Shown here: in pieces, positions 32,021 through 64,000 of the stretch
How the letters are laid out: each line of letters opens with the position of its first letter
How positions within the stretch are numbered: position 1 is the first letter of the stretch
Assembly (NCBI GenBank): GCA_026014735.1
Contig: JAOZHT010000004.1
Coordinates: forward strand, 93,321-157,320
DNA: 64,000 nucleotides
From: Candidatus Bathyarchaeota archaeon
GTDB lineage: Archaea > Thermoproteota > Bathyarchaeia > Bathyarchaeales > Bathycorpusculaceae
Direction of reading: 5' to 3'
Position numbers and translations under genes: made by a program
Notes under the pieces: model-generated
Database searches by the model: none
The model's input: only the letters and a program-made list of their open reading frames with translations
What the model was told of the DNA's origin: nothing

Positions 32021-33271
32021 TTGGTTCATCAAGAATGCATAAACTGCAAAACAGCATATGGCACAGATGAGGTTGTGTATTTCTGCAGAAAATGCGGAGA
32101 CATCCTCGAAATCAAATATGAAAGCGGCGAATTGGCAGCGGCAGCAAAAACAGGCGACTGGAAAGCAAAGCCGCTTTCGGTGTGGCGCTACCGACCCTTC
32201 ATGCCCATCCACGAAGCCACCAAACTCGTCACCCTCGGCGAAGGCGGAACAGGCTTGCACCGCAGCCAACGCCTAGGAGACGAACTCGGCGTAAACACCC
32301 TATACGTCAAAAACGAAGGCGAAAACCCCACCGGCAGCTTCAAAGACAGAGGCATGACAGTGGGCGTAACCAAAGCCGTTGAACTCGGCGCACGCCACGT
32401 AATCTGCGCCTCCACAGGCAACACCAGCGCGGCTCTGGCAGCATACGCGGCACGAGCAGGCATCCGATGCACCGTCCTGATTCCCTCGGGCAAAATCGCC
32501 TATGGCAAACTCAGCCAAGCCATGATCCACGGCGCCAAAGTGCTGCAGGTTAAAGGCAACTTTGATGAGGCACTGGAGTTTGTGCTTAAACTCGCCGAAA
32601 AACATCAAGACATTTACCTGCTTAACTCCATCAACCCCTTCCGCATCGAAGGCCAAAAATCGCTGGGATACGAAATCTGCGAGCAACTCAACAACCAAGC
32701 CCCTGACCGCATCGTCATCCCCGTTGGAAACGCAGGCAACATCAGCGCAGTCTGGAAAGGACTTAAAGAATTCCACCAGCTCGGCTACATCAAAAAGCTG
32801 CCCAAAATGACCGGCATCCAAGCCGCAGGCAGCGCACCCATCGCACAAGCCATCAAAGCAGGCAGCGACAAAATCGTCCCCGTCGAGCACCCCGAAACCG
32901 TCGCAACCGCCATCCGCATCGGCGCACCAGTCAGCTGGAAAAAAGCAGTCAACGCCATCCGCGAATCAGGCGGAACAGCCGAAACCGTCACCGACGAAGA
33001 AATCCTCGACGCCCAAAAAACTTTGGCGCGAATAGAAGGAATCTTTGTGGAACCCGCCTCTGCCTCATCGATTGCTGGCCTCAAAAAACTCGTGAAGCGT
33101 GGAGTTATCCTTTCAGACGAGAAGGTGGTCTGCATCACCACTGGGCATGGCCTCAAAGACCCTGACACCGCCATTAAGCAATGCGAGAAACCCGTTGAGG
33201 TAGATGCAGAGATGTCAGCGATTGAGGATGCCTTGGGCTTAAAGAGAAACGAGGCTGTTGTGGCTCGGTGA
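32021..33271 (+). CDS. thrC: Threonine synthase (archaeal type with N-terminal zinc ribbon)
   Basis: CINCKTAY...FCRKCG zinc ribbon and PLP-lysine motif NPTGSFKDRG, plus ASTGNTSAALAAYAA. TTG start with a GGAG 11 nt upstream. Confidence 0.9.
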   Translation: MVHQECINCKTAYGTDEVVYFCRKCGDILEIKYESGELAAAAKTGDWKAKPLSVWRYRPFMPIHEATKLVTLGEGGTGLHRSQRLGDELGVNTLYVKNEGENPTGSFKDRGMTVGVTKAVELGARHVICASTGNTSAALAAYAARAGIRCTVLIPSGKIAYGKLSQAMIHGAKVLQVKGNFDEALEFVLKLAEKHQDIYLLNSINPFRIEGQKSLGYEICEQLNNQAPDRIVIPVGNAGNISAVWKGLKEFHQLGYIKKLPKMTGIQAAGSAPIAQAIKAGSDKIVPVEHPETVATAIRIGAPVSWKKAVNAIRESGGTAETVTDEEILDAQKTLARIEGIFVEPASASSIAGLKKLVKRGVILSDEKVVCITTGHGLKDPDTAIKQCEKPVEVDAEMSAIEDALGLKRNEAVVAR

Positions 33272-33278
33272 GGTATGC

Positions 33279-34310
33279 ATGAGGATTATTCTGGTCGGAT
33301 ACGGCGTTGTCGGCAAAGGCGTCACCACGATTCTTGCCAAACGCAGCGTCGAGAAAGTCAAGGACTACGGCTTTAACCCCAAAATCGTAGCCATAGCAGA
33401 CATCGATGGCGCAGTCATCAACCCCCGAGGATTCAGCCCCGAAAAACTCGAAGCCATCAAGCAACGCGGCTACCCCATCAGCGCCGACCCCCAATACGGC
33501 CACCCCGCCATGAAGGCGCAGGAAGTCATCGAGCAAGTCGAAGCCGAAGTCGTCGTTGAAGTAACCCCAGTCAACATCCAAACCGCGGAACCCGCCCTCA
33601 CACACATAACCACCGCCTTTAGAACAGGCAAACACGTCGTAACCACCAACAAAGGACCCCTAGCCCTAGCCATGCCCGCACTCACCGAACTAGCCGAATA
33701 CAACAACGTGTATTTCCGCTTCAGCGGCACTGTGGGCGGCGGCACCCCGATGCTGGAATTCGCCAAAAGATGTCTAGCAGGCGACAGAATACTGGGCATC
33801 AAAGGCATCCTTAACGGCACAACCAACTACATCCTCAGCGAGATGGGACAGAACCGCATAAGCTTCCAAGATGCCCTCCAAACCGCCCAGAAGCTAGGCT
33901 ACGCCGAGCGGGAACCCTCCATGGATATTGACGGATACGACACCGCCTGCAAAACCGTGATTTTGGCAAACTGGATTCTGGGCCAGAAAATCACCCTCAA
34001 AGACGTCGACCGCACAGGCATCCGAGACGTCACATTAGAAATGCTCGACGACGCAGCCAAACGGGGCAGCACCCTCAAACTCATCGGCTCCCTCGACGGC
34101 ACCACCAAACCCTCTGTGAAACCCACGGAAATCCCCAAAACCAACCCGCTCTGCGTCAGCGGAGTCCTCAACGCCGTCACCTACCAATGCGAATTCGCCG
34201 CGGAGCAAACCATCATCGGACGTGGTGCAGGCTCAATTGAAACGGCTGGTGCGGTTTTAAGGGACCTCTTAGACATAAGACATAAGTTAGCAACTAAACT
34301 ACTAACGTAG
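33279..34310 (+). CDS. hom: Homoserine dehydrogenase
   Basis: MRIILVGYGVVGKG Rossmann start, VVTTNKGPLA, GTVGGGTPM, ILNGTTNYIL and GYAE.EPS.DIDG.D.A.K motifs. Confidence 0.9.
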   Translation: MRIILVGYGVVGKGVTTILAKRSVEKVKDYGFNPKIVAIADIDGAVINPRGFSPEKLEAIKQRGYPISADPQYGHPAMKAQEVIEQVEAEVVVEVTPVNIQTAEPALTHITTAFRTGKHVVTTNKGPLALAMPALTELAEYNNVYFRFSGTVGGGTPMLEFAKRCLAGDRILGIKGILNGTTNYILSEMGQNRISFQDALQTAQKLGYAEREPSMDIDGYDTACKTVILANWILGQKITLKDVDRTGIRDVTLEMLDDAAKRGSTLKLIGSLDGTTKPSVKPTEIPKTNPLCVSGVLNAVTYQCEFAAEQTIIGRGAGSIETAGAVLRDLLDIRHKLATKLLT

Positions 34311-34327
34311 AGAAAACGTGAATCGCC

Positions 34328-35737
34328 ATGAAAATAGTGATGAAGTTCGGTGGAACAAGCGTCGGCACAGGCAAAAACATACGTCACGTAGCCGACTTAG
34401 TTACCCAATACGCCAAAAAAGACAACAAAGTAGCCGTGGTTGTTTCGGCGCTGGCAGGAGTCACTAACGAGTTAATCGAAACCGGATGCAAAGCCAAAAA
34501 AAGCGACGAAAAACACATCCAAGCCTTCACAGCCGACCTGCTCAAAAAACACACAGACGCCATCGAGGCAGCCATCACCAGCAAGGCAATCCAGAAAGAA
34601 GTCAAGTTAGCCACCCAGAAAACCATCGTGGAACTCGAAAAAGTCCTCACCGGCATCTGCTACGTCGGCGAACTCACCCCCAAATCTAAGGATTACGTGA
34701 TGTCCTTTGGCGAACGCCTCAGCGCCCCCATCGTCTCCGGCGCCATAAGAGACTACCAAGCACAAAGTCAGGCGCTCACAGGCAAAGACGCTGGCATAGT
34801 CACCGACAGCAACTTCGGCGAAGCCGACCCCCTGATGAACTACACCACCCACCTCATCCGCGAACGCCTCAGCCCCCTGATTGAAAAAGGCACCATCCCC
34901 GTGGTCACCGGCTTCATAGCCGCTAACCAAGATGGCGTTGTCACCACGGTTGGTCGTGGAGGTTCAGACTACACCGCCACTATCCTGGGCGTGGCTTTGG
35001 AGGCAGATGAAGTGTGGATTTGGACTGACGTCGACGGCATCATGACCACGGACCCCAAACTGGTGCCAGCCGCCCGCATGCTTCCGCAGCTAACCTACCA
35101 GGAAGCTTCGGAGATGGCGATTTTCGGAGCCAAAGCCATGCATCCACGCGCGCTTGGCCCAGTGAGCAAAGTGGGGATTCCGGTTCGTATCCGCAACACC
35201 GCATGTCCCGAAAACAGCGGCACCCTAATCACCACTGAACCAGCCAAAAACGAAACTAAACCCGTCAAAGCCGTTGCCATGATCAAAGACGTAGCGATGC
35301 TAAACGTCTACGGAGCCGCCATGGTCGGGGCACCCGGCAGCTACGCTAAAGTCTTCGAGGTTCTCGGCAGAAACGGCATAAACGTCATGATGACCTCCGC
35401 CGCAGTCTCCGAAGCCAACATCTCACTGATAATCAAGCGTGGACTGCTCGGCAGAGCCATCAGCAACCTTGAAATCGCATTGCAGGAACGCGGAGGAATA
35501 GTCAGCGAGGTCACCGCCGAAGACGACGTGGCAGTCATCGCGGTTATGGGCGCCTACATGAAGGGCACCTTGGGGATTGCCTCAAAAATCTTCGAGATAG
35601 TCGCCAAAAAAGGCATCAACATCCGCATGATCGCGCAGGGCAGCTCGGAACTCAACATCAGCTTCGTTGTGAAGGAGAAGGATGGCGCCGCGGTTGTGCG
35701 GGCGATTCATGACGAATTTGGCCTCGACAAGCCTTAG
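34328..35737 (+). CDS. lysC: Aspartate kinase with two C-terminal ACT domains
   Basis: VMKFGGTSVG, VVVSA..GVTN.L, GRGGSDYTA, WTDVDGIMTTDP and tandem ACT repeats at the C-terminus. Confidence 0.92.
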   Translation: MKIVMKFGGTSVGTGKNIRHVADLVTQYAKKDNKVAVVVSALAGVTNELIETGCKAKKSDEKHIQAFTADLLKKHTDAIEAAITSKAIQKEVKLATQKTIVELEKVLTGICYVGELTPKSKDYVMSFGERLSAPIVSGAIRDYQAQSQALTGKDAGIVTDSNFGEADPLMNYTTHLIRERLSPLIEKGTIPVVTGFIAANQDGVVTTVGRGGSDYTATILGVALEADEVWIWTDVDGIMTTDPKLVPAARMLPQLTYQEASEMAIFGAKAMHPRALGPVSKVGIPVRIRNTACPENSGTLITTEPAKNETKPVKAVAMIKDVAMLNVYGAAMVGAPGSYAKVFEVLGRNGINVMMTSAAVSEANISLIIKRGLLGRAISNLEIALQERGGIVSEVTAEDDVAVIAVMGAYMKGTLGIASKIFEIVAKKGINIRMIAQGSSELNISFVVKEKDGAAVVRAIHDEFGLDKP

Positions 35738-50056: not shown

Positions 50057-51859
50057 ATGGCAGCTACATTAACCTTCTATGGTGCAGTTGACGAAATCGG
50101 CGGAAACAAAATCCTCCTGAAAACAAGCGATGGAGCCCTCCTGCTGGATTTTGGGCGCCGCATGAACGAGTACGGAAGATTCTTCTCGGATTACATTCAG
50201 GCACGCTCCAAAAATGCCCTTCGTGACATGCTGAGGTTGGGGATTCTTCCAAAAATCGATGGAGTCTACACGCGTTACTTGGTGGATATGACCTCTTTAT
50301 TTGAAAACCCTGAGGTAAGCAAAAAAGTTCCCTTTGAAGAGGCCCGGGATTACTGGAAAACCACCGATGTCTCCCCCTGCGACCCCGCAAAGCCAGCGGT
50401 TGATGCCGTCTTTGTAACGCATGCCCATTTTGATCACATCCAAGATGTTAGTTTTCTTGACCCATGCATCCCAGTTTACTGCACAGAAAAAACCAAAGTG
50501 CTAGCAAAAGCCATGACGGATGTTTCTGTTTCAGGGGTTGATGACCAATATTACAAGCTCGCCAAGGAGTCAACCATTAAGCAGAAGCCAGCGGGGTACA
50601 AGACGCTCTGTCCAGAGGAATGCGCGTTCTGCGAGGAAAAAGAGGAGGAGCACCCAATCATTGTTGACGCAAAAACAAAATTCGCATTCACTTATGACAT
50701 AGCTCCACGATATCGAACTTTTAATACAGATATGCAGGGCCACGTGAAAGGCATAGAGTACAAGCTTATCCCCGTGGGGCACTCGGTACCTGGCGCATGC
50801 TCAATCCTGTTGACGCTGCCAGGTGGCAAACGGGTTCTCTATACAGGCGACATACGGTTCCACGGTGCAGATGAAGTTTCAATAGATGATTATGTCAAAG
50901 CCGTCGGTGGCTCAGTGGATATTATGATCACGGAGGGCACAAGGGTAGATTCGGAGAATGTCTTAACGGAGGAACAGGTCGGCAGAGACATAACCGAGGA
51001 TATCAGATGCTGTGAGGGGCTTGTGCTGATTAACTTTGGCTGGAAGGACCTAACACGCTTTAACACCGTATATGAAGCCGCCAAAAGCAACGGTCGCGTC
51101 CTTGTGGTTACGCCTAAACTTGCATATTTGCTCTATGAGATGCACTGCAACTTCCCAACCAAACATCAAGACCCAAGAACGATGGATAACCTGAAAGTTT
51201 ACCTCAAACGCGAAGGCGACCTGCTCTACTCCAAAGCAGACTATGACAAATACAAAATGGGGTACCTGCATTATCACGGCAGAAACGTAGCTAAAGACGA
51301 CCGCAACCTTGTCCGCATAGCAGAACGACTCGACGTCGGCGGCGAAGCGGGGAACCCAAAAAATCCCCTGGGGGCAACATGCGCGGGGTTACCTTATGAT
51401 TACAAAGATATCTACTCGCTGGCAACGCACCATTTAGACAACGGCGTTAGAGCCTACCAAATACGCAGAACCCCAAGGCAGTACGTCTTGATGTTCTCGT
51501 TCTGGGATGCAAATGAACTCTTCGACTTGATACCCCTTGACGGCAAACATCAAACCCGCTACATCTCGGCATCCACGGAGCCGTTTAGTGAAGAGATGGA
51601 AATTGACGAACGCAAAATGGTGCATTGGATGGACTTCTTTAGCATCGCCTGCGACTATGACGTTGACGAAAAGGGCGATAAATCGTTTAAGCGCAGGCAT
51701 GTTTCGGGGCACGCATCAAAAATGGAACTTAAAGAAGTAATAGATAGAATAAACCCAGCCAGGATTATACCCATCCACACGGAGAATTGCGGAGTATTCG
51801 AAAGCTTGTTTGCATCAAAAGTTATTTTGCCGAAATATGCTCAGCCCATAGAGATTTGA
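50057..51859 (+). CDS. Metallo-beta-lactamase fold beta-CASP nuclease (RNase J / CPSF-like) with long insertions
   Basis: Motifs in order: LLLDFG (motif 1 Asp), VTHAHFDH (HxHxDH), VGHSVPGA, YTGDIRF, ITEGT (motif A), HVSGHAS (motif B), IPIHTE (motif C). At 600 aa it has no KH domains. It carries a Cys-rich insert, CPEECAFCEE. Confidence 0.75.
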   Translation: MAATLTFYGAVDEIGGNKILLKTSDGALLLDFGRRMNEYGRFFSDYIQARSKNALRDMLRLGILPKIDGVYTRYLVDMTSLFENPEVSKKVPFEEARDYWKTTDVSPCDPAKPAVDAVFVTHAHFDHIQDVSFLDPCIPVYCTEKTKVLAKAMTDVSVSGVDDQYYKLAKESTIKQKPAGYKTLCPEECAFCEEKEEEHPIIVDAKTKFAFTYDIAPRYRTFNTDMQGHVKGIEYKLIPVGHSVPGACSILLTLPGGKRVLYTGDIRFHGADEVSIDDYVKAVGGSVDIMITEGTRVDSENVLTEEQVGRDITEDIRCCEGLVLINFGWKDLTRFNTVYEAAKSNGRVLVVTPKLAYLLYEMHCNFPTKHQDPRTMDNLKVYLKREGDLLYSKADYDKYKMGYLHYHGRNVAKDDRNLVRIAERLDVGGEAGNPKNPLGATCAGLPYDYKDIYSLATHHLDNGVRAYQIRRTPRQYVLMFSFWDANELFDLIPLDGKHQTRYISASTEPFSEEMEIDERKMVHWMDFFSIACDYDVDEKGDKSFKRRHVSGHASKMELKEVIDRINPARIIPIHTENCGVFESLFASKVILPKYAQPIEI

Positions 51860-52894: not shown

Positions 52895-55800
52895 TTATCG
52901 GCGGGTTTGGGCCAGCGTTTTTTGGGATTTAACGTAGACTTCCACCTTAACGTCTGGGTTTGCTTGCCCAAGGAACTTTGACAAGTCACCCTCCCACTGA
53001 GGCTTAGAGTCTGCAGTGAAGCCCACCGTGTCGGAGATGCCCCGCCAGAGCAACGCGCGGTCGTAGTCGCGGGCGTCTTGGGGCATGAACTCGAATATGC
53101 TGCGGCTTGCCACGATGACGAGTTTCTTTTTCATCCGCGAGATGGCGACGTTGATGCGGTTGAGGTTAAGCAGGAACTCGCTTTCGGTGCGGACATAGTC
53201 GGGGTCGCTGACGCAGCTGCTGATGATGACGAAGTCTGCTTCGCCGCCCTGATATCGCTCCACCGTATCGACGCGGGCGCCCAGGTTGGCGTCTTGGAGG
53301 CGGTTTTTAAGCAGCCCCTTCTGGGCATTGTGGGGAGTGATGACGCCTATATTTGCGGAGGACGCATTCTTAGCCAGCGCCGCCACGATGGATGCCTCCA
53401 CCAAGTTAGACTGGAAACTCTCTGCCTCATCATGCACGATGAGGACAAACACGTTCTGAGGCGCCAAAGCCACAGCTAACCCCTCCGTCTGGGCCTCAAC
53501 AGGCGCTAAAGTCTGCGTCTGCTCAGAACGGAAATCAATGTTATCCTTCTCATAGACCCATTCACGCAGAAATTCCGCGACCACCGAGTGGCAACGGTGG
53601 CTCTCGCAGAGCCGCTCCGCAGGGATGTCTGCTGGGTTTCTGCATTTTATCCGCTCCAAGCCAAGGTCTTCGTTGCGTAGCAACCGCAGAAAATCCATAG
53701 CGGAAAGAAAAGACGCCATTTCCTCAAGGGTGCGGCGGTCCTCTTTTTCCCAGTTATGCGCCACAATCGGCGGCAGCTGGCGGTGGTCGCCTGCGACGAG
53801 GATTTGGCTGTTTTTGGATAGGAAGCTTCCTGAGAGGATGAGTTCGGGGAGCCGCATCATGCTGGCTTCGTCGACGACGAGGAGGTCAAAGAAGCCTTCG
53901 CCCCAGGGCGGCTCGGATTCGCCGATTTTTTTCATCAAGCCATATAGCCCAGGCGGCGTCAGACATATCACTAACGGGGAGGAAGCCGATGTGGAGGGCG
54001 TAAGCGTGGATTGATTCATCAGGCAGCCCGTGAGTTCAGCGACGGTTTCTTGGTCCTGGTTATAGTTGACGTATTTGACTCCGTCGATGGGCGGCACAAG
54101 CGAAACCTCGCTGCTTAAGACACGGTAAAGCTGCAGATCTTTGAGGTCGCGTCCGCCGGCGGCGATGTATTCTTTCCAGCAACGGCCGAGTTTCTCGACG
54201 AATTCCTGGATGGCTTTATGGGTCGGCGCCACCATCAAAACTCGGCACCGAGACTTTGCCCTATGCGCGGCGATGTGAGCAAGCACTGCAAGCTGCAGCG
54301 TTTCGGTCTTGCCCGTGCCAGGCGGACCCTGAAGCATCACAATCGGTTCAGCTCCAAACACGCGTTCCACAAAACGTTTCTGTTCTGCTTTGGGCGGAAA
54401 CCGCCGTGCCTCCATCCAATTTAGGAAAGGCATCGCTGCAGCCCTGTCTAGTGCAGTGTGGTTGTTGCCGCCTGTCTTGCCCGCCAAGTAGTCTGCTAAG
54501 AGGCAGTAGAGGACGTTGTTGGCTGCGTAGTCGAGGCTTTTTGCGGCGCGGTCCGAGATGATGTCGTCGGCTAACTCGTCAAGGATGTAGTAGCGTCCAG
54601 CCTCGAAGAGCTGCATGTACTTGCCCTGTGCCTTCTCGGGGTCAGTGGTGGGCAGATTATGCCATGCACTGTACTTGCTGCCCCTGCCCCGCGGCCAACT
54701 CACGATTTTAACGACAACTTCCAGCTTGGGCACGTCCACGCGGTCCACGATGGCTCGGGCGGACTTCTCCACCTCCCCCGGCGAGCGCTTCTCGGTTTCC
54801 TCAAACTGCCCCGAGGCGTTGCGCCGCAGCTCAGTCACCACCATCCAGTCGCCTGAACTTGAGCCCTCCGAGCCCTTTACGCGGCAGGCGTTGGCGACGC
54901 AGTCAGCTCTGGGCAGCCCCAGATCCTCGTAGACCAGCTTGCCCCGCACCACGAATTCCCGTTCAAACTCGTCGACGCGTGTGCACTGGAAAATCACTGA
55001 TCGCCCGGAAGCCACCCGCTGATAGGGCAGCATCGCATAGTGCTGATACATCTCCTGGCGCTTCGAGAAGTACTCTAAATCCAAGAATTCTCGGCAGCTC
55101 CGCTCCAGCGTGGCGGTGCCCAGCGTGAACTCGGAGATTTTGGGGACAGCAATCGGCTTTTTGCCCAGTCGCCTGTTACGGATAGAGAGGGACCGCTCGA
55201 CCTGCTCGAGTGCCATACAGATTTTGGTGCCCATCAGGTTAAGTTCTTCGTCGGTTATGCGGCGGGTTTTAGAGGTGTAGTCGCACCATTTGCGTTTATC
55301 GAGCAGAACCTTGGAGGGGCCTTTAACTTGGCTGAAATTGTCGAGTCGACCCTTGGCGCCCCAGATGTACTCGATGGGCAATTGGTCGCCGAAGCGGGCG
55401 CGAGCGGGGTAGTAACCGTCGTTTTTGCCCTCTTTGAGGAAGGCGATGGTGCCGTCGGGGTTTCTGCGGTAGGGCAAGCTGTAGTTGAATAAGCCGTCGC
55501 GGAACACCAGCGCCAAATCCACTATGGTGCCGTCTTTGCGTTTGACGCGCCATTGGTTGCGGTCAAAGAAGCATGCCTGCTCCAGAATTGGCAGCAACCC
55601 CGAGCTGTGATAACGCAGGGCTTTGCGGTGGACCACTTCGTCTTGGAGAATGGAGAACATGGGTTGGTCGATGGCTTGCCGCAGCCCCAGCAGGTCACGC
55701 ACGGCCTGTGCACTAATCATTGAGGGCTGCCGACAGACCGCTTTCATGAGGACATCGCGTTCTTGGCGGCTGAAGAAGTACAGGTGAATCGGCGCCTCAT

Positions 55801-57259
55801 CGGGGCTGCCGGCTGCAGCTGCGGCTTTATTTATGGCCGCGGAGAGGTCAGCGAAAAAGCCCTCCAGCAGTCTGCGCTCCTCCTCTATGCATTCGTTTCG
55901 GTCGTCGGGGAGGCTGCTGATTACGCGGGAAACGAGGAGGGGTTCGCCGCGGTATCGGGTGCAGCTGACTTTGGCGCTGAGCATCGAGACGCAGTCAAGC
56001 ATGTAGTCCCATTCGATGAAGAGGTAAATGCGGATTAAGCCGTCGGGGTTATAGAGTAACGAGGCGTCGGCGCCGCCGGAGGGGCTGTCTTCGGGGAGGC
56101 TACCGTAGCCTGTTCCGGTAAGCCAGGGCATCCAGCGGCTTTTGCTGGCGTTTGGGCTGCTGGGGCGGATGCCGCCAAGCATGTACTGGGCGCGTTCAAC
56201 CAGCCAATCCAGCTTGGCGCCGATGATGGGGTCTGTTGAGAGCTCCTGAACCTTTTTTGGGTCCTTAGCGGGGATAACTCGGAAGTCGTTGGGGCGCAGA
56301 TTGCCGCCGTCCAGCACCACTTTGAGCCGCGCCAAATCCTCCAGCCCCCTGACGCCGTGATGCGAGAGAGCTTTCTGTTCGCCTCGGCTTAGATTCAGCA
56401 GCGCCACGCTTTCGTTCTCCACTGAGCAGACAATGCAGCATTCGTTGAAGCCGCAGTTGTCACATCTCCAGCAGAGCTGGTACTCGACTTCCTCGAGGGG
56501 TTTTTTGTGGATGCGGTTGAATTCCCCGTTTTTGGCGAGGAGCCGCTCGACGTCTTGGATGAGGGGGCTGAGTTTGAATTTGGGCAGGGCGTCAGCTTCG
56601 AGGCTTTCAAGGCTGGTTTCGCGGTTGATGACGCCGCCTTCCAGCTCCACCTTGGCGGATAAGCCGCCGAGTTCGCGTCCCAGCAGCAGAACGTAGATGG
56701 CGACTTGGATGCGGTGGGCGGTCTGCTCTTTCCAGGAGGATTTGAGTTCGAAGATGCGGACTTTTACTTTGCCTTCTTTAAGCGGCCATACCGCGATTAA
56801 ATCCGCGATGCCTTTGACATCCCATACGCCGATTGGGCCCTTCATAGGCACCTGATAGAGCAAAACGGGGCGGGGGTCAGCTTTTTCTCCCAGCGAGATT
56901 ATGTGCTCGATGACGTAGTGGAGGTTATTTAGGGAATCCTGGGCTTTATCCCAGCCGCGCTTACCATACTTGTTAGGGTCATAAACAGTGAAGTCAAGGT
57001 ACTCGGCGGCTCTCCCCTTGAGCTCAGCGACTTTTTTTTCTTCCAACGCTTTGCCGGTGCCGTAGAGCAGGGGACTGATGGGTTTGAAGGCTTCGGGCCA
57101 AGTGCGTTTTTTGACTTCTTTGCCTTCGAATTTAAGTTTGAAGAAGCGGGGGCAGCAGTTGAAGCGGATGTACTCGGCGATGCCTGAGGCAGTCAGGGTT
57201 TTGCCGCCTTCGGGCTCTTCGCCTGAAAGGTCATCTGCATCGATGTCGTCGTAACTCAA
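52895..57259 (-). CDS. Fe-S PD-(D/E)xK (Cas4/RecB/Dna2-type) nuclease fused to an SF1B Upf1/Dna2-like helicase, 1454 aa
   Basis: N-terminus: FNCCPRFF Cys, IADLIAVW, RIFELKSS, QVAIYVLLL (QxxxY), then CWRCDNCGFNECC, followed by an HhH-like segment. C-terminus: LQGPPGTGKT, LLVVDEASMM, VAGDHRQLPPI, VERYQGGEADFVIIS, NVAISRMKKKLVIV. TTG start with GGAGG upstream. Confidence 0.85.
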   Translation of the reverse strand: MSYDDIDADDLSGEEPEGGKTLTASGIAEYIRFNCCPRFFKLKFEGKEVKKRTWPEAFKPISPLLYGTGKALEEKKVAELKGRAAEYLDFTVYDPNKYGKRGWDKAQDSLNNLHYVIEHIISLGEKADPRPVLLYQVPMKGPIGVWDVKGIADLIAVWPLKEGKVKVRIFELKSSWKEQTAHRIQVAIYVLLLGRELGGLSAKVELEGGVINRETSLESLEADALPKFKLSPLIQDVERLLAKNGEFNRIHKKPLEEVEYQLCWRCDNCGFNECCIVCSVENESVALLNLSRGEQKALSHHGVRGLEDLARLKVVLDGGNLRPNDFRVIPAKDPKKVQELSTDPIIGAKLDWLVERAQYMLGGIRPSSPNASKSRWMPWLTGTGYGSLPEDSPSGGADASLLYNPDGLIRIYLFIEWDYMLDCVSMLSAKVSCTRYRGEPLLVSRVISSLPDDRNECIEEERRLLEGFFADLSAAINKAAAAAGSPDEAPIHLYFFSRQERDVLMKAVCRQPSMISAQAVRDLLGLRQAIDQPMFSILQDEVVHRKALRYHSSGLLPILEQACFFDRNQWRVKRKDGTIVDLALVFRDGLFNYSLPYRRNPDGTIAFLKEGKNDGYYPARARFGDQLPIEYIWGAKGRLDNFSQVKGPSKVLLDKRKWCDYTSKTRRITDEELNLMGTKICMALEQVERSLSIRNRRLGKKPIAVPKISEFTLGTATLERSCREFLDLEYFSKRQEMYQHYAMLPYQRVASGRSVIFQCTRVDEFEREFVVRGKLVYEDLGLPRADCVANACRVKGSEGSSSGDWMVVTELRRNASGQFEETEKRSPGEVEKSARAIVDRVDVPKLEVVVKIVSWPRGRGSKYSAWHNLPTTDPEKAQGKYMQLFEAGRYYILDELADDIISDRAAKSLDYAANNVLYCLLADYLAGKTGGNNHTALDRAAAMPFLNWMEARRFPPKAEQKRFVERVFGAEPIVMLQGPPGTGKTETLQLAVLAHIAAHRAKSRCRVLMVAPTHKAIQEFVEKLGRCWKEYIAAGGRDLKDLQLYRVLSSEVSLVPPIDGVKYVNYNQDQETVAELTGCLMNQSTLTPSTSASSPLVICLTPPGLYGLMKKIGESEPPWGEGFFDLLVVDEASMMRLPELILSGSFLSKNSQILVAGDHRQLPPIVAHNWEKEDRRTLEEMASFLSAMDFLRLLRNEDLGLERIKCRNPADIPAERLCESHRCHSVVAEFLREWVYEKDNIDFRSEQTQTLAPVEAQTEGLAVALAPQNVFVLIVHDEAESFQSNLVEASIVAALAKNASSANIGVITPHNAQKGLLKNRLQDANLGARVDTVERYQGGEADFVIISSCVSDPDYVRTESEFLLNLNRINVAISRMKKKLVIVASRSIFEFMPQDARDYDRALLWRGISDTVGFTADSKPQWEGDLSKFLGQANPDVKVEVYVKSQKTLAQTRR

Positions 57260-57410
57260 CCCCCACTCGCCTCCGCAACAATCACTTGCTGACAGTAACG
57301 GCGCCGGATATTATTGTATTTACCGTTAATCCCCAACCCCATCGGCGACGCCTGGCGGAAGCTGGCGAAAAACTCTTCTGTGTAGGCATTTAATGTAATG
57401 TGGAGACGGC

Positions 57411-57971
57411 ATGCGCAGAACCCAAAAACCCCACAGGCAACTAACCCTCGACAAACTCCCCACTTCGCAACCCAGCCCAGCGCAGCCTCCGCAGCTAAAG
57501 CAGATAAAAATAACGCAGTTTGCCTCCGAAACCGGCATAGACGAGTTAACCCTTAAAGTCAGCTTCGCTCTTAAGCCCTCAAAAGCCGCCTTCTCCAAGC
57601 TGAAAGCGGATTTGCGGTTTGAGGAAGAGGTTTTGTCGTCTGTGCTGATTCGGGTTCCTCAGGGGCCGCTGTCCACCGACGAGTTAGAGTACAGTTGGGT
57701 GCTGGATATGACGGGGATAGGCGAGGGCAAGTACGCGGTTGGGGTTGAGATGTATGAGGCCGGGGGCAGCGAGAAGCTAAACTGCGCCACAGATGAGTTG
57801 ACGCTGGATTATGTGCCGCAGACTCGCCGAAGCTGCTACATTCGGGTGCCATCCGTTAAGAGCGTTGCGGGGGCGGATTTGTCTGTTGCCTCCAAAACTG
57901 AGAGTGAACTCTACCGCGAACTCGAAAATACACTGCGGGAAGAGCAGAAGTGCAGAAGGGATAATTGGTGA
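57411..57971 (+). CDS. Hypothetical protein
   Basis: 186-aa ORF divergent from the nuclease-helicase gene. It has a P/Q-rich N-terminus followed by a beta-rich-looking core. No family recognised and the start is uncertain. Confidence 0.4.
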   Translation: MRRTQKPHRQLTLDKLPTSQPSPAQPPQLKQIKITQFASETGIDELTLKVSFALKPSKAAFSKLKADLRFEEEVLSSVLIRVPQGPLSTDELEYSWVLDMTGIGEGKYAVGVEMYEAGGSEKLNCATDELTLDYVPQTRRSCYIRVPSVKSVAGADLSVASKTESELYRELENTLREEQKCRRDNW

Positions 57972-60151: not shown

Positions 60152-61279
60152 TTAGTTTACGCCGTTCTTGCTATTATGCAGTTCCGATAGCCGAAGCAGC
60201 GTCTCCTTGTATACGGCGATGGCGTCAAGGTACTCTTGGATCTCGATGTGCTCATCGACGGTGTGGTCCAGATGCGAGTCGCCGGGTCCATAGGTTACGA
60301 TGGGCAAGTTCATGGCTTTGCCGAGGATGTTCATGTCGCCTGTGCCAGTCTTATGCAGCAGCGTAGCTGGTTTTCCCAGGACTTTACGCACGGAGGAAGC
60401 CATAACGTGCACAAGCGGAGAGGATTTGTTGACTTCAAAGGGCTCCACGGTGTCGAGGATTTCATGTTTAACAACAATTTCTGGGTTAGCAGCCTGGTAC
60501 TTGGCGATGATTTTGGAGAGTTGCTCGGCGACTTTGGCGGTGCTGAACTGGATGGGTATACGGATGTCAAGGTTCATTTCGGCTTCAAAGGGGATAACGG
60601 AGGTGGCTTCGCCGCCGACGAGGCGTACCAGACAGGCGGTTACGGCGTTGTAGGGGCTGACAGAGGGGTCAAGAGAAGGGTAAGAGGAGTGCGTTCGGAT
60701 GCGCTCCCAGAGTTCATAGGCTTTCTCTAAGGCGTTATCGTAGACCCATGGGGTAGATGCATGTCCAGTTTCGGTTTTAACGGTGACTTTAAGCTGGATT
60801 TGTCCCTTGTAGCCCACGGTGATGTTTTCGACGCCGCTTGGCTCGCCGAAGATGGCGTAGTCCGCTTTGATGCCCTGCGTAATGAGGTGACGAACGCCTT
60901 TGCTGGTGGCTTCCTCCTCCACGACGCTGGCGACAAGGATTTTGCCTTTGAAATGAGGCTCTTTGCTTGCCTGCAACGCAGCAATAACCATAGCTGCCAG
61001 GGGCCCTTTAGCGTCCACTGCGCCTCGAGCGTAAATTTTGCCCTCTTCAACACGCAGCGGCAAGATGCCTGCAACAGTGTCCATGTGTCCACAGAGCAAG
61101 ATGACGGGTTCGCCTTCGCCGACAACGCCTATGACGTTGCCTATGGCGTCGACGCCTACTTGAAAACCTAACTTCTTCATGCGTTGAGCTATAAAGTCAG
61201 CTATGTCCTGCTCGTGTCCGCTGGGGCTGTAAATGCCCAGCAGGTTAGTTAGAAACTGTACTGCTGTTTGCTCGCTCAT
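60152..61279 (-). CDS. lysK: M20-family deacylase: [LysW]-lysine/ornithine hydrolase or acetylornithine deacetylase
   Basis: LLCGHMDTV, ARGAVDAKG and EEE.TS.G metal-ligand motifs of the M20 peptidase/ArgE family. It is the last gene of the lysY-Z-J-K-ordered string. Confidence 0.8.
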   Translation of the reverse strand: MSEQTAVQFLTNLLGIYSPSGHEQDIADFIAQRMKKLGFQVGVDAIGNVIGVVGEGEPVILLCGHMDTVAGILPLRVEEGKIYARGAVDAKGPLAAMVIAALQASKEPHFKGKILVASVVEEEATSKGVRHLITQGIKADYAIFGEPSGVENITVGYKGQIQLKVTVKTETGHASTPWVYDNALEKAYELWERIRTHSSYPSLDPSVSPYNAVTACLVRLVGGEATSVIPFEAEMNLDIRIPIQFSTAKVAEQLSKIIAKYQAANPEIVVKHEILDTVEPFEVNKSSPLVHVMASSVRKVLGKPATLLHKTGTGDMNILGKAMNLPIVTYGPGDSHLDHTVDEHIEIQEYLDAIAVYKETLLRLSELHNSKNGVN

Positions 61280-62459
61280 TTTCTTCTTCCTCCAACACGG
61301 CGTCTAACACGGTGATGGCTCGGTCAATCTGGGGTTTAGTTATGATCAGCGGCGGCAAGATACGCACGACGGTTTTTCCTGCGTCGATAACCAGTACGCC
61401 GCGGTCAAGGGCTTTTTTGATGACGCCGTAAACGTCATAGCGCAGCTCCACACCCAACATCAGGCCTAACCCGCGGACCTCTTTGATTATGCGGTGCTTC
61501 TGAGCTAAGCCTTCCAGCTGCGTCTTGAAGTATTTGCCGTTAACCGCTGCTTTCTCAGCCAGTTTCTCCTCCAGCAAAGCATCTATGGCGGCGCATCCGG
61601 CAGCGCAAACCAGGGGTCCGCCGCTGAAGGTGGTGGAGTGCTCGCCGACTTTGAAGGCGGACATGAGGTTTTCTTTGGCGACGGTTACGCCGATGGGTAA
61701 GCCGCCTGCGAAGGGCTTAGCAAGGCACATGACATCGGGGGTTACATCCCAGTTTTCGCAGCCGAAGAGCTTGCCGGTTCGCCCAAAGCTCGACTGGACC
61801 TCGTCGAGGATTAAGAGGACGCCTCGGCGGTTGCAGATTTCCCGAACTTCCTGGAGGTAGCCGTCGGGTGGCACGCGGATGCCGCCTTCGCCTCGGACGG
61901 GTTCAAGGATAATCGCCGCGGTTTTCTCACTTATGGCTTCCCCGATTTTAGCGGAGTTGTCGGGTGCGACGTGTTTGACGTCGGGGATAAGGGGCATGAA
62001 GGGTTCACGGTACTTTTTATCCCACGTGGCGGAGAGGGCCCCCATGGTTTTGCCGTGGTAGGCGCCCATGACGGCGATGATTTCGGTTTTGCCGGTGGCT
62101 TTGCGGGCAAGTTTTAGGGCGCACTCTATGCTTTCGGCGCCGCTGTTGGAGAGAAACGCCTTATCAAGGCCCTTAGGCGTGATTTTAACGAGTTTCTCGA
62201 TGAACTCTGCACGTTTGTCGTTGTAGTAGCAACTGTGGCAGGTGATGAGTTGTTGGGCCTGCTCTTTTATGGCTTCCACGATTTTGGGGTGACCATGCCC
62301 AAGCGCCGCTACGCCGTAGCTGCTGGCGCAGTCCAGGTACTCTTTGCCGTTGATGTCCCAGAGCAGCGCGCCTTTGCCGCGGGTGAGCACAACGGGTTTT
62401 TTAGAGAACACGTTGGCTAAGTAGCGGTTTTCAGTTTCCATGATTTCGGTTTCATTCAC
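61245..62459 (-). CDS. lysJ: Class III aminotransferase: acetylornithine / [LysW]-aminoadipate semialdehyde aminotransferase
   Basis: SNSGAESIECALKLAR, LILDEVQSSFGRTGK and LAKPFAGGLPIG (PLP lysine) motifs. Confidence 0.9.
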   Translation of the reverse strand: MNETEIMETENRYLANVFSKKPVVLTRGKGALLWDINGKEYLDCASSYGVAALGHGHPKIVEAIKEQAQQLITCHSCYYNDKRAEFIEKLVKITPKGLDKAFLSNSGAESIECALKLARKATGKTEIIAVMGAYHGKTMGALSATWDKKYREPFMPLIPDVKHVAPDNSAKIGEAISEKTAAIILEPVRGEGGIRVPPDGYLQEVREICNRRGVLLILDEVQSSFGRTGKLFGCENWDVTPDVMCLAKPFAGGLPIGVTVAKENLMSAFKVGEHSTTFSGGPLVCAAGCAAIDALLEEKLAEKAAVNGKYFKTQLEGLAQKHRIIKEVRGLGLMLGVELRYDVYGVIKKALDRGVLVIDAGKTVVRILPPLIITKPQIDRAITVLDAVLEEEENERANSSTVSN

Positions 62460-63261
62460 TTGTTATCACTGTACCGACCTGATGATTAAGAGCCGATGTT
62501 ATGGGCTGCTTGGCGGTGCCTGAGGTTACAAGGACTTCCTGCACGCCCTGACTGAGCGCCTCAAGTCCCGCGTGGACTTTGGTGCTCATGCCGCCGCCGA
62601 TTTTGCTAAGGACCTCTTTAACTTCGGTGGCAGCGATTTTTGGGACCCGCTCGCCTTTAAGCATTAGGCCCTCCACGTCGGTGAGCAGGATGAGTTTGTC
62701 GGCTTTGAGCGCTCCCGCGATGATGGCTGCGGTGCGGTCGCCGTCCACGTTAAGGGGCTCGCAGTCCTGGCTAAGCGCGATGGGCGTGACGATGGGCACA
62801 TAACCCTTCTCCAGGAGGAGTTTAAGCAGCTCTGTGTTGACTGATGTGATTTTGCCGGTGTAGCCGCCGTCGATGACTTTTTTGCGTCCCCGCTCATCCA
62901 CCACGATAAGCCGCGTCTTGCGTTCCGCCTTAAGGATCGCGGCGTCTAAGCCGCTAAGACCCACCGTTGCTATGCCCTGTGCCTGCAGCGCCAACACGAT
63001 TTGCTTATTCATTTTGCCCGCCATAACCATAGTGTAGATTTCTATGGTTTCCTTATCGGTGTAGCGGCTGCGGAAACCCTCGGGGGACATGATGAATTTC
63101 TGTTCCTTACCCAGTTTGCTGGCGATTTCAGTGACTTCTGCGCCGCCGCCATGCACCAAAACCACCCTGTGCTCTCTGGTGACTTCTTTGAGGTCCGCTA
63201 CGAGGTCGGCGGCTGTGCCCTCCTTAAGGATTGACCCACCCATCTTGACTACGAGCAGCAT
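62452..63261 (-). CDS. lysZ: Amino-acid kinase: [LysW]-aminoadipate/glutamate kinase or acetylglutamate kinase
   Basis: VVKMGGS, VLVHGGG and NVDGDRTAAIIAGALKADKLILLTDVEG motifs. At 269 aa it is the short LysZ-like length. Confidence 0.9.
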   Translation of the reverse strand: MLLVVKMGGSILKEGTAADLVADLKEVTREHRVVLVHGGGAEVTEIASKLGKEQKFIMSPEGFRSRYTDKETIEIYTMVMAGKMNKQIVLALQAQGIATVGLSGLDAAILKAERKTRLIVVDERGRKKVIDGGYTGKITSVNTELLKLLLEKGYVPIVTPIALSQDCEPLNVDGDRTAAIIAGALKADKLILLTDVEGLMLKGERVPKIAATEVKEVLSKIGGGMSTKVHAGLEALSQGVQEVLVTSGTAKQPITSALNHQVGTVITSE

Positions 63262-63273
63262 AGCAGCAGTCTC

Positions 63274-64000
63274 CTAAATGGGGTGGAACCCAGTGCTCTT
63301 CAGCCCCGAGGTCTCATCTATACCCATCATTATGTTGAGGCATTGTACACCCTGACCCGCCGCGCCCTTCACCATATTATCCACTGCACTGAAGAGTATG
63401 AGGCGGTTAGCGTGCTCATCGATTTCGAAGCCTACATCACAGAAGTTGGTGCCTGTGGTGACTTTGGGGTCAGGCAACTGGTAGGGTCCCTTCTGGTACT
63501 TCACCAACCGCACAAACGGCTCAGAGCCGTACATGCCGCGCAGGGCTTTCCAGAGGTCCTTGTTTTGGATGGGCTGCTTGGGGAAAGTGTGGATGGTCGC
63601 AAGGATGCCGCGGATCATGTTGACGGCATGCGGCGTGAAGCTGATTTTTACGGGTCCGCCCAGCGGCGCAAGTTCCTGTTCAACTTCGGCTATGTGGCGG
63701 TGACCCACAACCTTGTAGGGACGCACACCTCCAGCGCGTTCGGGATGGTGACCGGCAAGGGAAGGCTTGCTACCGCCACCTGAAGACCCGACTTTAAGGT
63801 CAACAACTACGTGGTCTGTGTCGATTAAGCCAGCTTTCACAACTGGGGCTAAGCCAAGGATGGCGGCGGTGGCTTCGCAGCCCGCGCAGGCCACGAGCTT
63901 TGCGGTTTTGATTTCTTCACGGTGCAGCTCAGGCAAGCCGTAGGCGGCTGTTTTTAGCATTTCGGGGTGCGCATGCTCCCAGCCGTAGTAGGTGGGGTAA
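63274..64000 (-). CDS. lysY: N-acetyl-gamma-glutamyl-phosphate / [LysW]-aminoadipyl-phosphate reductase, C-terminal part (5' end outside the window)
   Basis: YGLPELHREEI and the active-site context ACAGCEATAAILGLAP. The reading frame stays open upstream of the listed ATG to the window edge (YPTYYGWEHAHPE-MLKTAAYGLPEL). Confidence 0.9.
   Translation of the reverse strand, partial: YPTYYGWEHAHPEMLKTAAYGLPELHREEIKTAKLVACAGCEATAAILGLAPVVKAGLIDTDHVVVDLKVGSSGGGSKPSLAGHHPERAGGVRPYKVVGHRHIAEVEQELAPLGGPVKISFTPHAVNMIRGILATIHTFPKQPIQNKDLWKALRGMYGSEPFVRLVKYQKGPYQLPDPKVTTGTNFCDVGFEIDEHANRLILFSAVDNMVKGAAGQGVQCLNIMMGIDETSGLKSTGFHPI

Follow-up and report, generated by a model that had tools for sequence, protein, structure and literature searches.

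The window analyzed here is a stretch of 64,000 nucleotides (nt) from contig JAOZHT010000004.1 of a Candidatus Bathyarchaeota archaeon (assembly GCA_026014735.1, positions 93,321 to 157,320). On its minus strand it carries a gene for a single polypeptide of 1454 amino acids (aa), in which an N-terminal iron-sulfur (Fe-S) nuclease is followed by a large central region and a superfamily 1B (SF1B) helicase. On balance, we consider this protein to be probably a vertically inherited DNA-end-processing enzyme that belongs to the core genome of Bathy-6 Bathyarchaeia, has a housekeeping role and is a member of a sparsely distributed superfamily with the layout of DNA2 and Bad. The gene and its parts, with the basis of each assignment (AF2 denotes AlphaFold2 models), are as follows.

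52895 to 57259, minus strand: whole gene, nuclease / RNase-H-like / SF1B helicase, 1454 aa, TTG start, stop codon at 52895-52897 (list of open reading frames and translation)
56405 to 57199, minus strand: residues 21-285, Cas4/AddB-type 'iron-staple' PD-(D/E)xK nuclease (Pfam, invariance in the family, profile match, Foldseek)
56108 to 56404, minus strand: residues 286-384, HhH-like helix pair, helical linker and conserved GTGxGxLPED loop (AF2 helices, alignment to TM0106)
54980 to 56107, minus strand: residues 385-760, predicted RNase-H-fold domain, PF13482/PolB-exonuclease-like, with a helical/beta extension (AF2, hhalign, Foldseek, residue counts)
54410 to 54979, minus strand: residues 761-950, predicted beta-barrel and stalk helices, the 1B-type accessory of Upf1-like helicases (AF2, Foldseek, SETX profile match)
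53075 to 54409, minus strand: residues 951-1395, SF1B (Upf1-like) helicase (Pfam AAA_11, AAA_12, AAA_19 and AAA_30; PDB matches)
52898 to 53074, minus strand: residues 1396-1454, conserved C-terminal tail, LLWRGI... (61% mean identity in the Bathyarchaeia clade)

The gene is widely conserved among Bathyarchaeia. In a search among 5.8 billion proteins, full-length homologs (1440-1455 aa, 70-92% identity) made up more than 120 clusters, and all organisms named among them are metagenome-assembled genomes (MAGs) of Bathyarchaeia. A genome scan in which each GTDB species was represented once gave 80 loci in 79 genomes, at 63-86% identity to the window protein; the genomes are labeled as Bathyarchaeia or Bathyarchaeota, 'Bathy6' or Candidatus Bathycorpusculum, and a few have odd bin labels. 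Bathycorpusculum is a member of the Bathyarchaeales, and these labels assign the window to an archaeon of the Bathy-6 type. In one MAG, CAWJIN01, two full-length copies (66-67% identity to the query) lie on separate contigs (L043 and L047) and may be paralogs or the product of a mixed bin. Synteny was compared across 84 loci, made up of the 80 loci of the genome scan and four others (L001-L004). Directly upstream of the nuclease-helicase gene, 32-33 of the 84 loci (28-29 by clustering of open reading frames) carry a LysW-type lysine/arginine operon (LysZ/J/K), which in the window comprises the following genes.

60152 to 61279: LysK
61245 to 62459: LysJ
62452 to 63261: LysZ
63274 to 63960: LysY

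Downstream, aspartate kinase and homoserine dehydrogenase are found in 15-16 loci, at median distances of +3.7 and +4.7 kb and a minimum of 136 bp; in the window these two genes (32021-35737), part of a block with PALP, lie 17 kb from the gene. The conserved backbone order is LysWXYZJK operon, nuclease-helicase gene, variable island and aspartate kinase. A second, divergent subclade of Bathyarchaeia (63-67% identity) has other housekeeping-type genes as neighbors: PheRS, PFK, a Trp operon, PEBP, an HTH protein, beta-propeller proteins, an ABC transporter and Snf7. When gene products from the same loci are compared with those of the window, identities are for example 86, 80 and 73% for the nuclease-helicase, 87, 84 and 82% for LysJ, and 76, 93 and 76% for LysK; by this measure the nuclease-helicase evolves about as slowly as its Lys-biosynthesis neighbors. 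Mean identity per domain is also about the same throughout (0.74-0.81). Near-equal conservation of the domains and Lys-like identity are the marks of vertical inheritance and strong purifying selection. Its GC content (0.55-0.58) resembles that of the backbone, with lower values in the downstream island.

This island explains why a sequence-only reading, made earlier from the letters and a list of open reading frames, had placed the gene in an accessory-looking stretch: a backbone gene abuts an insertion hotspot, and what looks accessory is a segment of ~17 kb inserted downstream (~35.8-52.9 kb), not the context of the gene itself. The segment has a GC content of 0.45-0.50, compared with 0.53-0.58, and contains GT2, GT4, polysaccharide deacetylase, a radical-SAM/SPASM protein, a 766-aa membrane protein, a beta-CASP hydrolase and orphan open reading frames. 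None of these genes is conserved beside the nuclease-helicase gene in other loci, and the beta-CASP and glycosyltransferase neighbors were rejected as functional context because they are not conserved and are part of the inserted island. The same insertion spot is occupied in L001 by a Dcm-NgoFVII-Vsr restriction-modification system and a PIN toxin-antitoxin pair, and in L003 by a TFB gene. No CRISPR array, tRNA or Rfam element is found near the gene, there are no cas genes among the window neighbors and no prokaryotic Argonaute (pAgo) gene is nearby. PADLOC models matched none of ten window neighbors, and no relative of the nuclease-helicase was found in the phage collection or in IMG/VR.

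Turning to the protein itself, the 1454-codon frame is uninterrupted in the translated window, as first read, and all motifs quoted from it were recovered, with offsets of at most 2-3 nt. The motifs of the N-terminal nuclease are FNCCPRFF (C35/C36), IADLIAVW (D153), RIFELKSS (E171 and K173; nt 56735-56758), QVAIYVLLL (Q185 and Y189) and the cysteine motif CWRCDNCGFNECC (C263-C275, nt 56435-56473). The Pfam model PDDEXK_1 matches residues 129-275 at 25.2 bits (cutoff 22), and the Pfam Cas4 model matches the protein weakly. In an alignment of 55 family members with identities down to 22%, E73, D153, K173, Q185 and Y189 are invariant, and all 55 have either E or D at position 171. The PD-(D/E)xK core with QxxxY motif that had been read here is thus borne out, with catalytic residues that are aligned and invariant rather than absent. 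What had been described as a lone N-terminal Cys is in fact two adjacent cysteines, C35 and C36, the second of them conserved. Together with C266, C269 and C275, C36 is kept in 54 of 55 members with the spacing C36...C266-x2-C269-x5-C275, and the family profile aligns to Cas4 SSO0001 (4IC1; E 7e-4) over the D, ExK and QxxxY motifs and both cysteine regions, in agreement with the proposed 4Fe-4S arrangement. A search of the PDB with residues 1-324 by phmmer gave no match, and the family profile was needed to reach Cas4. Similarly, Foldseek searches with an AF2 model of residues 1-950 (pLDDT 86.5, pTM 0.83) returned nuclease domains of ACE1, Cas4, EXO5 and AdnAB at probabilities of 0.98-1.0, with ACE1, an Argonaute-associated enzyme of the Cas4 family, resembling this part of the chain most closely in structure. 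Alignment demonstrates, at the N-terminus, a Cas4-type Fe-S nuclease whose active site reads as complete. Separately, ~16 full-length family representatives (1385-1520 aa; for example P0130, P0137, P0138, P0141, P0148 and P0170) are without CX2CX5C, which suggests that some subgroups have lost the Fe-S staple and retained the rest of the architecture.

Behind the nuclease, AF2 places helices at residues 285-288, 292-300, 306-310, 334-341 and 347-364. The HhH-like element proposed for this segment stands in part: two of these short helices (292-300 and 306-310) and a profile alignment to the HhH region of the TM0106-type protein P0345 speak for it, and a Pfam search of the whole protein gave no match to the HhH model.

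At the other end of the chain, the helicase motifs seen in the sequence-only reading are all present and intact. They comprise Walker A GPPGTGKT (978-985, in the string LQGPPGTGKT at 976-985, nt 54305-54334), DEAS (1130-1133, in LLVVDEASMM), GDHRQLPP (1157-1164, in VAGDHRQLPPI), VERYQGGE (1333-1340) and R1368/R1375, VERYQGGEADFVIIS being the fourth motif string. Pfam AAA_11 and AAA_12 match at 63 and 75 bits, and the helicase models together (AAA_11, AAA_19, AAA_30 and AAA_12) span residues 958-1386. As a single sequence searched against the PDB, the protein finds mouse DNA2 first (60 bits, E 6e-16), with IGHMBP2 and UPF1 also matched; the family profile ranks Upf1 first (91 bits), followed by IGHMBP2 (84), DNA2 (77) and SETX (66). 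With the two rankings at odds over DNA2, the helicase appears to be a generic Upf1-like motor without a particular leaning to Dna2. Matches to PADLOC and NCBIfam models (MkoA at 156 bits, DpdJ, PLuB and IGHMBP2) are confined to the helicase core (residues 950-1400) and fall far below the curated cutoffs. Ahead of the core, AF2 predicts strands between residues 755 and 895 and helices between 900 and 949. The model of residues 1-950, which contains no RecA domain, matches Sen1, SETX and Upf1 over ~210-235 columns in Foldseek, and the SETX match of the family profile covers residues 869-1039. We ascribe the structural matches to this segment and infer that residues 761-950 form the 1B barrel and stalk of the Upf1 type, Dna2 included. 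The tail behind the helicase (residues 1396-1454) matches no Pfam family. Overall, the DNA2-like layout first proposed for this protein, an Fe-S nuclease of the RecB/Cas4 type followed on the same chain by an SF1B Upf1-like helicase, is supported.

The middle of the protein had been described as having no nameable motif, and indeed no Pfam, NCBIfam or PADLOC model matches residues 300-950. Residues 385-760 make up the bulk of this formerly unassigned core (residues ~300 to 950). Modeled alone by AF2, the core reaches a pLDDT of 89.2 and shows the order beta1-beta2-beta3-alpha-beta4-alpha-beta5-alpha, followed by a mixed extension. Its Foldseek matches are weak but consistent (E 0.01-0.3) and include PolB exonuclease domains (ASFV polymerase, Pol alpha), the RNase-H-like domain of ESRP1, 3'hExo, oligoribonuclease (Orn)/REXO2, ExoI and PIWI. 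When the first 620 columns of the family alignment were compared by hhalign with P0345, residues 15-511 aligned at a probability of 94.8% and an E value of 5.5e-8; the match came from such sub-alignments, and the full family alignment gave the helicase only. P0345 itself matches TIGR03491 ('TM0106 family RecB-like nuclease') at 242 bits; besides Pfam PF13482 (RNase_H_2) it has an Upf1-like helicase at its C-terminal end. The alpha1-beta4-alpha2 part aligns alike in three TM0106-helicase proteins, and E461, H492, Y494 and E500 correspond to the hallmarks 'E..., HxYHY...YE'. PF13482 itself is matched directly by 1 of 32 distant relatives (E 0.003). The models thus demonstrate, at the level of predicted structure, an RNase-H fold of the PF13482/PolB-exonuclease kind, and the degenerate RNase-H-like middle of TM0106 type that had been offered as a guess is supported by the hhalign match, the AF2 topology and the PolB-exonuclease/DEDD folds found by Foldseek. 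By its alignments, the unit of nuclease, HhH segment and RNase-H-fold domain is a divergent module of the TM0106 type.

Whether the middle domain cuts is a separate matter. The Asp with which the exonuclease motif DxE canonically begins is replaced: position 414 is F, H, N or Y (F414 in the query) and position 416 is E or Q, the register of beta1 relative to the DLE of P0345 being uncertain. D418, E461, H492 and Y631 are invariant in the core, and D422, Y494, E500 and E541 nearly so. Among distant relatives the RNase-H-fold domain is the best-conserved N-terminal part (36% identity). Because of its conserved acidic and His residues and this degree of conservation, the domain is taken to be functionally important. 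Given the loss of the canonical DxE, it is most likely a DNA-binding or regulatory pseudo-exonuclease, and the invariant acidic/His cluster makes a second catalytic site possible. A more far-reaching version of the latter, which we regard as quite unlikely, would make D418, D422, E461, H492, E500, E541 and Y631 a second, non-canonical nuclease site or one that handles 3' ends. In that case one chain would unite two nucleases with a 5'-3' motor, in functional analogy to AddAB/RecBCD, and would be the principal enzyme of end resection and fork processing in Bathy-6; in haloarchaea, pAgo, BREX, restriction and MrfAB-like modules would have co-opted its relatives on repeated occasions.

Outside Bathyarchaeia, relatives sharing 22-45% identity occur in a patchy manner. 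A filter-free HMMER search with residues 1-950 yielded 469 representatives of clusters at 50% identity at E<1e-3, of which 188 reach E<1e-30. Most are 1380-1690 aa long and align across nearly the whole query at 25-43% identity; the entire architecture is therefore conserved. Named members come from an MSBL1 archaeon, Halosimplex, Natronomonas, Janthinobacterium and a betaproteobacterium, and from MAGs of Chloroflexota (Chloroflexi, Ktedonobacterales), Bacillota, Acidobacteria and Armatimonas. Members are also borne on plasmids, nine of them haloarchaeal and one from Chlorohelix. Four short relatives of 750-870 aa (P0189, P0196, P0222 and P0239) match residues ~125-510 only; they have no helicase, carry an N-terminal extension of ~100-200 aa, and score 21-49 bits on TIGR03491 (maximum 48.7, cutoff 97.45).

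We then considered the genomic surroundings of these relatives. In Halosimplex, BREX genes (PglX/PglZ/SNF2) and an integrase adjoin the family member, and another haloarchaeal member adjoins an HsdR-N protein. On plasmids of Haladaptatus and Halalkalicoccus, a gene annotated as 'restriction endonuclease' follows ~100-200 bp after the family member on the same strand (L092:13644-15089 and L094:12461-13339). On a plasmid of Salinigranum rubrum (L095:3538-14482), a Piwi-domain (pAgo) gene lies directly upstream, and a metallophosphoesterase and a Rad50/SbcC-like ATPase (Mre11/Rad50-like) directly downstream, all on one strand. In Halosimplex, Salinirubellus and Haloglomus (L085:5604-9631, L093:3855-7882 and L096:10785-14871), the family member adjoins genes for an RNase_H_2+HhH protein and a DEAD/MZB helicase, which lie upstream in two cases and downstream in one; in two of the loci an integrase gene follows the family member. 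We take this pair to be of the YprB/YprA, that is MrfB/MrfA, types, named for the mitomycin repair factors of B. subtilis. In two haloarchaeal-type contigs (L088:10001-18314 and L091:8001-20392) the genes of topoisomerase VI (top6B/top6A) come directly downstream of the family member; one of the contigs also has RadA and the primase small subunit close by. An AddAB-like pair stands beside the member of Janthinobacterium, and on a megaplasmid of Salinibaculum the member lies between thyA/folA and a DNA polymerase (PolB) gene. DNA-end metabolism appears as the common denominator of these contexts, some of which are of defense and some of repair or replication. Because the repair-type contexts involve top6B/top6A with RadA and primase, AddAB-like, Mre11/Rad50-like and MrfA/MrfB-like partners, and thyA/folA/PolB, we favor DNA-end processing as the general activity. 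The question of whether homologs sit near defense genes or are universally single-copy accordingly receives a split answer: in Bathyarchaeia the gene is single-copy and has no linkage to defense, and in haloarchaea several loci show such linkage and others do not.

Among described enzymes, the closest in layout is Bad of Geobacillus stearothermophilus, a DNA2-like helicase-nuclease with relatives that include Methanomicrobia (Wilkinson et al. 2020, PMC7430649). Bad carries an Fe-S cluster, acts as an endonuclease on single-stranded DNA (ssDNA) and as a 5'-3' translocase with a cryptic helicase activity, prefers 5' overhangs and loops DNA; its authors could not assign the central domain, and they described its physiological role as unknown (PMC7430649). 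Like Bad, the Bathyarchaeia protein is a single chain that has an iron-staple RecB nuclease at its N-terminus, an SF1B helicase at its C-terminus and a large domain between the two. The nuclease motif lies in the corresponding place (D150 in Bad, D153 here), and both families are spread sporadically. With 1245 aa and its Walker A lysine at 815, however, Bad is ~200 aa shorter than the present protein (1454 aa, lysine 984), and its central region is shorter by ~170 aa. Neither Geobacillus nor Methanomicrobia is among the named matches of the profile searches, and the one seeded with bacterial relatives of ~1280 aa gave MAGs of Chloroflexota, Bacillota and Acidobacteria. The link to Bad is architectural, a comparison of layouts and not of sequences.

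The TM0106 family (TIGR03491) shares with the query the series of Cas4-like Fe-S nuclease, HhH and PF13482-type RNase-H fold, which in fusions is followed by an Upf1-like helicase, as well as the hallmark residues of alpha1-beta4-alpha2. Examples of such fusions are P0345 and P0456, the latter a TM0106-family nuclease from Mycobacterium seoulense. In contrast to these, the query does not match TIGR03491 at E<=0.1 (cutoff 97.45 bits), appears to be without the DxE on beta1, and has ~200 extra residues (561-760) and a larger barrel and stalk. By alignment, the fusions are demonstrably related to the query in the N-terminal half. They are plausibly the 'second class' reported in Mycobacteria (PMC7430649); a literature search on TM0106 plus helicase found nothing. 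A phylogenomic study of Cas4 described UvrD-Cas4 fusions, whose layout differs from that of the nuclease-helicase considered here. Cas4, ACE1 and EXO5 provide the best structural and profile matches of residues 21-285, with identical D, ExK, QxxxY and Cys pattern, but they are stand-alone proteins of ~200-270 aa, and here no cas gene, CRISPR array or pAgo is found nearby.

Several points weigh against a housekeeping DNA-end processor. Whether DNA or RNA is the substrate, which polarity the enzyme has and how its nuclease cuts are all predicted from the domain families. The best curated matches of the helicase are defense helicases, over the helicase core only. Haloarchaeal members of the family often lie in defense or mobile contexts, and in Bathyarchaeia the downstream flank looks like an insertion hotspot that in L001 holds restriction-modification and toxin-antitoxin genes. 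Replication or repair genes never adjoin the nuclease-helicase in the Bathyarchaeia loci, and because of this the argument for a housekeeping role draws on conservation and synteny only. Most of these points would suit a stand-alone nuclease-helicase against viruses or plasmids, Nhi-like in its logic, that would recognize and degrade the ends of invading or replicating foreign DNA and would have become fixed in the clade by chance. Such a role, raised in the sequence-only reading as a stand-alone immunity protein, is in our view unlikely for this lineage. The combination of a nuclease with an SF1 Upf1-like helicase is indeed shared with Nhi, MkoA, DpdJ and PLuB, and the last three score highest on the helicase core; ACE1 tops the structural matches of the nuclease domain, nine of ten plasmid matches are haloarchaeal, and haloarchaeal neighbors include BREX with an integrase, restriction-endonuclease genes, a Piwi/pAgo gene and the HsdR-N protein. 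The defense models nevertheless stop at the helicase core with scores far under their cutoffs, and an Nhi model is not among the best 25 of 27 PADLOC matches to the query. Defense genes are usually patchy and fast-evolving. The Bathyarchaeia pattern is the opposite: a single-copy, positionally conserved gene with 63-92% identity over 1450 aa and rates like those of its Lys neighbors, in a syntenic locus that is not a defense island, with conserved neighbors that are metabolic or housekeeping genes, window neighbors that no PADLOC model matches, and no relatives in the phage and IMG/VR collections. For the wider family the idea of defense is not dead, given the pAgo, BREX and restriction-endonuclease neighbors in haloarchaea.

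Equally in need of consideration is the proposal that the protein is an archaeal Dna2, that is, the lineage's ortholog, acting in removal of long flaps from Okazaki fragments and in end resection as in eukaryotes. As in mouse Dna2 (5EAN), the order of domains is an Fe-S RecB-type nuclease with a 4-Cys staple across it, a barrel and stalk before RecA1 and a 5'-3' SF1B motor; mouse DNA2 heads the single-sequence PDB matches, and the clade keeps the gene as one conserved copy. Orthology is nonetheless improbable. PF08696 is not matched by the query (Pfam, E<=0.1) but is matched by the canonical Dna2-like P0346 (952 aa), which itself reaches only 76 bits on the family profile. The large extra core that had been remarked on proves to be an HhH and RNase-H-like module of ~470 aa (residues 286-760) inserted between nuclease and barrel, and the family profile places Upf1 and IGHMBP2 above DNA2. 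The nuclease groups with Cas4, ACE1 and EXO5, Dna2 being absent among the structural matches listed, and the family is not universal in archaea, has a patchy distribution over archaea and bacteria, and is carried on plasmids in haloarchaea. In its action the enzyme would resemble Dna2, but it should not be given that name. Least probable of all is an RNA-directed enzyme, with an Upf1-like RNA helicase and nuclease domains, that serves RNA surveillance or decay. By profile, the closest solved helicases are the RNA helicases Upf1/Nam7, IGHMBP2 and SETX/Sen1, the MkoA protein of Mokosh bears the annotation of an RNA helicase, and a beta-CASP/RMMBL gene lies ~1 kb away in the window (50057-51859). 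This neighbor, however, is conserved in no other locus, and relatives of the nuclease-helicase adjoin genes of DNA metabolism. Iron-staple nucleases of the Cas4/AddB type, like HhH motifs, have DNA as their target, which argues against an RNA substrate, as does the fact that Bad and Dna2, which share the layout, are DNA enzymes (PMC7430649).

As the DNA-end processor that we favor, the protein would, by analogy with Dna2 and Bad, load wherever a single-stranded 5' end or flap is free. Its SF1B motor would then move 5'-to-3' along ssDNA, and the nuclease, positioned ahead of the motor on the same strand, would cut ssDNA endonucleolytically. In the outcome, 5' flaps would be trimmed, or 5' strands resected at breaks and stalled forks. 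The middle domain may guide or sense the DNA and possibly cut it. In Bathyarchaeia the enzyme would be a solitary, monocistronic housekeeping factor for repair or replication intermediates, and in haloarchaea the same type of enzyme would be an accessory gene recruited by pAgo, BREX, restriction-endonuclease and MrfAB-like modules.

Some features around the start of the gene are reported here for completeness. The TTG start is plausible because homologs begin with 'MSxxD' at the identical position. GGAGG lies 10 nt upstream of it, and an A/T-rich AAATACAATAATAT element lies ~45-60 nt upstream (within 57300-57330, minus strand); the two are a possible Shine-Dalgarno-like site and archaeal TATA box, respectively. 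A scan of the region for sigma-70 promoters and terminators was uninformative, the host being an archaeon. Divergently, 151 bp from the start, an open reading frame of 186 aa (57411-57971, plus strand) matches no Pfam or PADLOC model. Homologs with 39-54% identity are placed and oriented alike in 14-15 further loci of Bathyarchaeia. We weighed the product as a partner of the nuclease-helicase, but it is present in just these 14-15 loci; it could be a co-regulated partner or merely a conserved neighbor.

Single-chain enzymes of the Dna2/Bad type, in which an iron-staple nuclease is joined to an SF1B helicase, cut DNA ahead of their own motor. The protein described here adds an example from archaea, large, conserved and confidently modeled (no fewer than 469 clusters at 50% identity, AF2 pLDDT 86-89), in which the 'unknown central domain' can now be read as an RNase-H fold of the TM0106/PF13482 type. 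It also offers a natural contrast between a core gene in one archaeal class and a plasmid-borne partner of pAgo, BREX, restriction endonucleases and MrfAB-like modules in haloarchaea. This contrast makes it testable whether a DNA2-like end processor is a repair enzyme borrowed by defense, or the reverse, and the family has a bearing on how DNA ends may be processed in the uncultured Bathyarchaeia.

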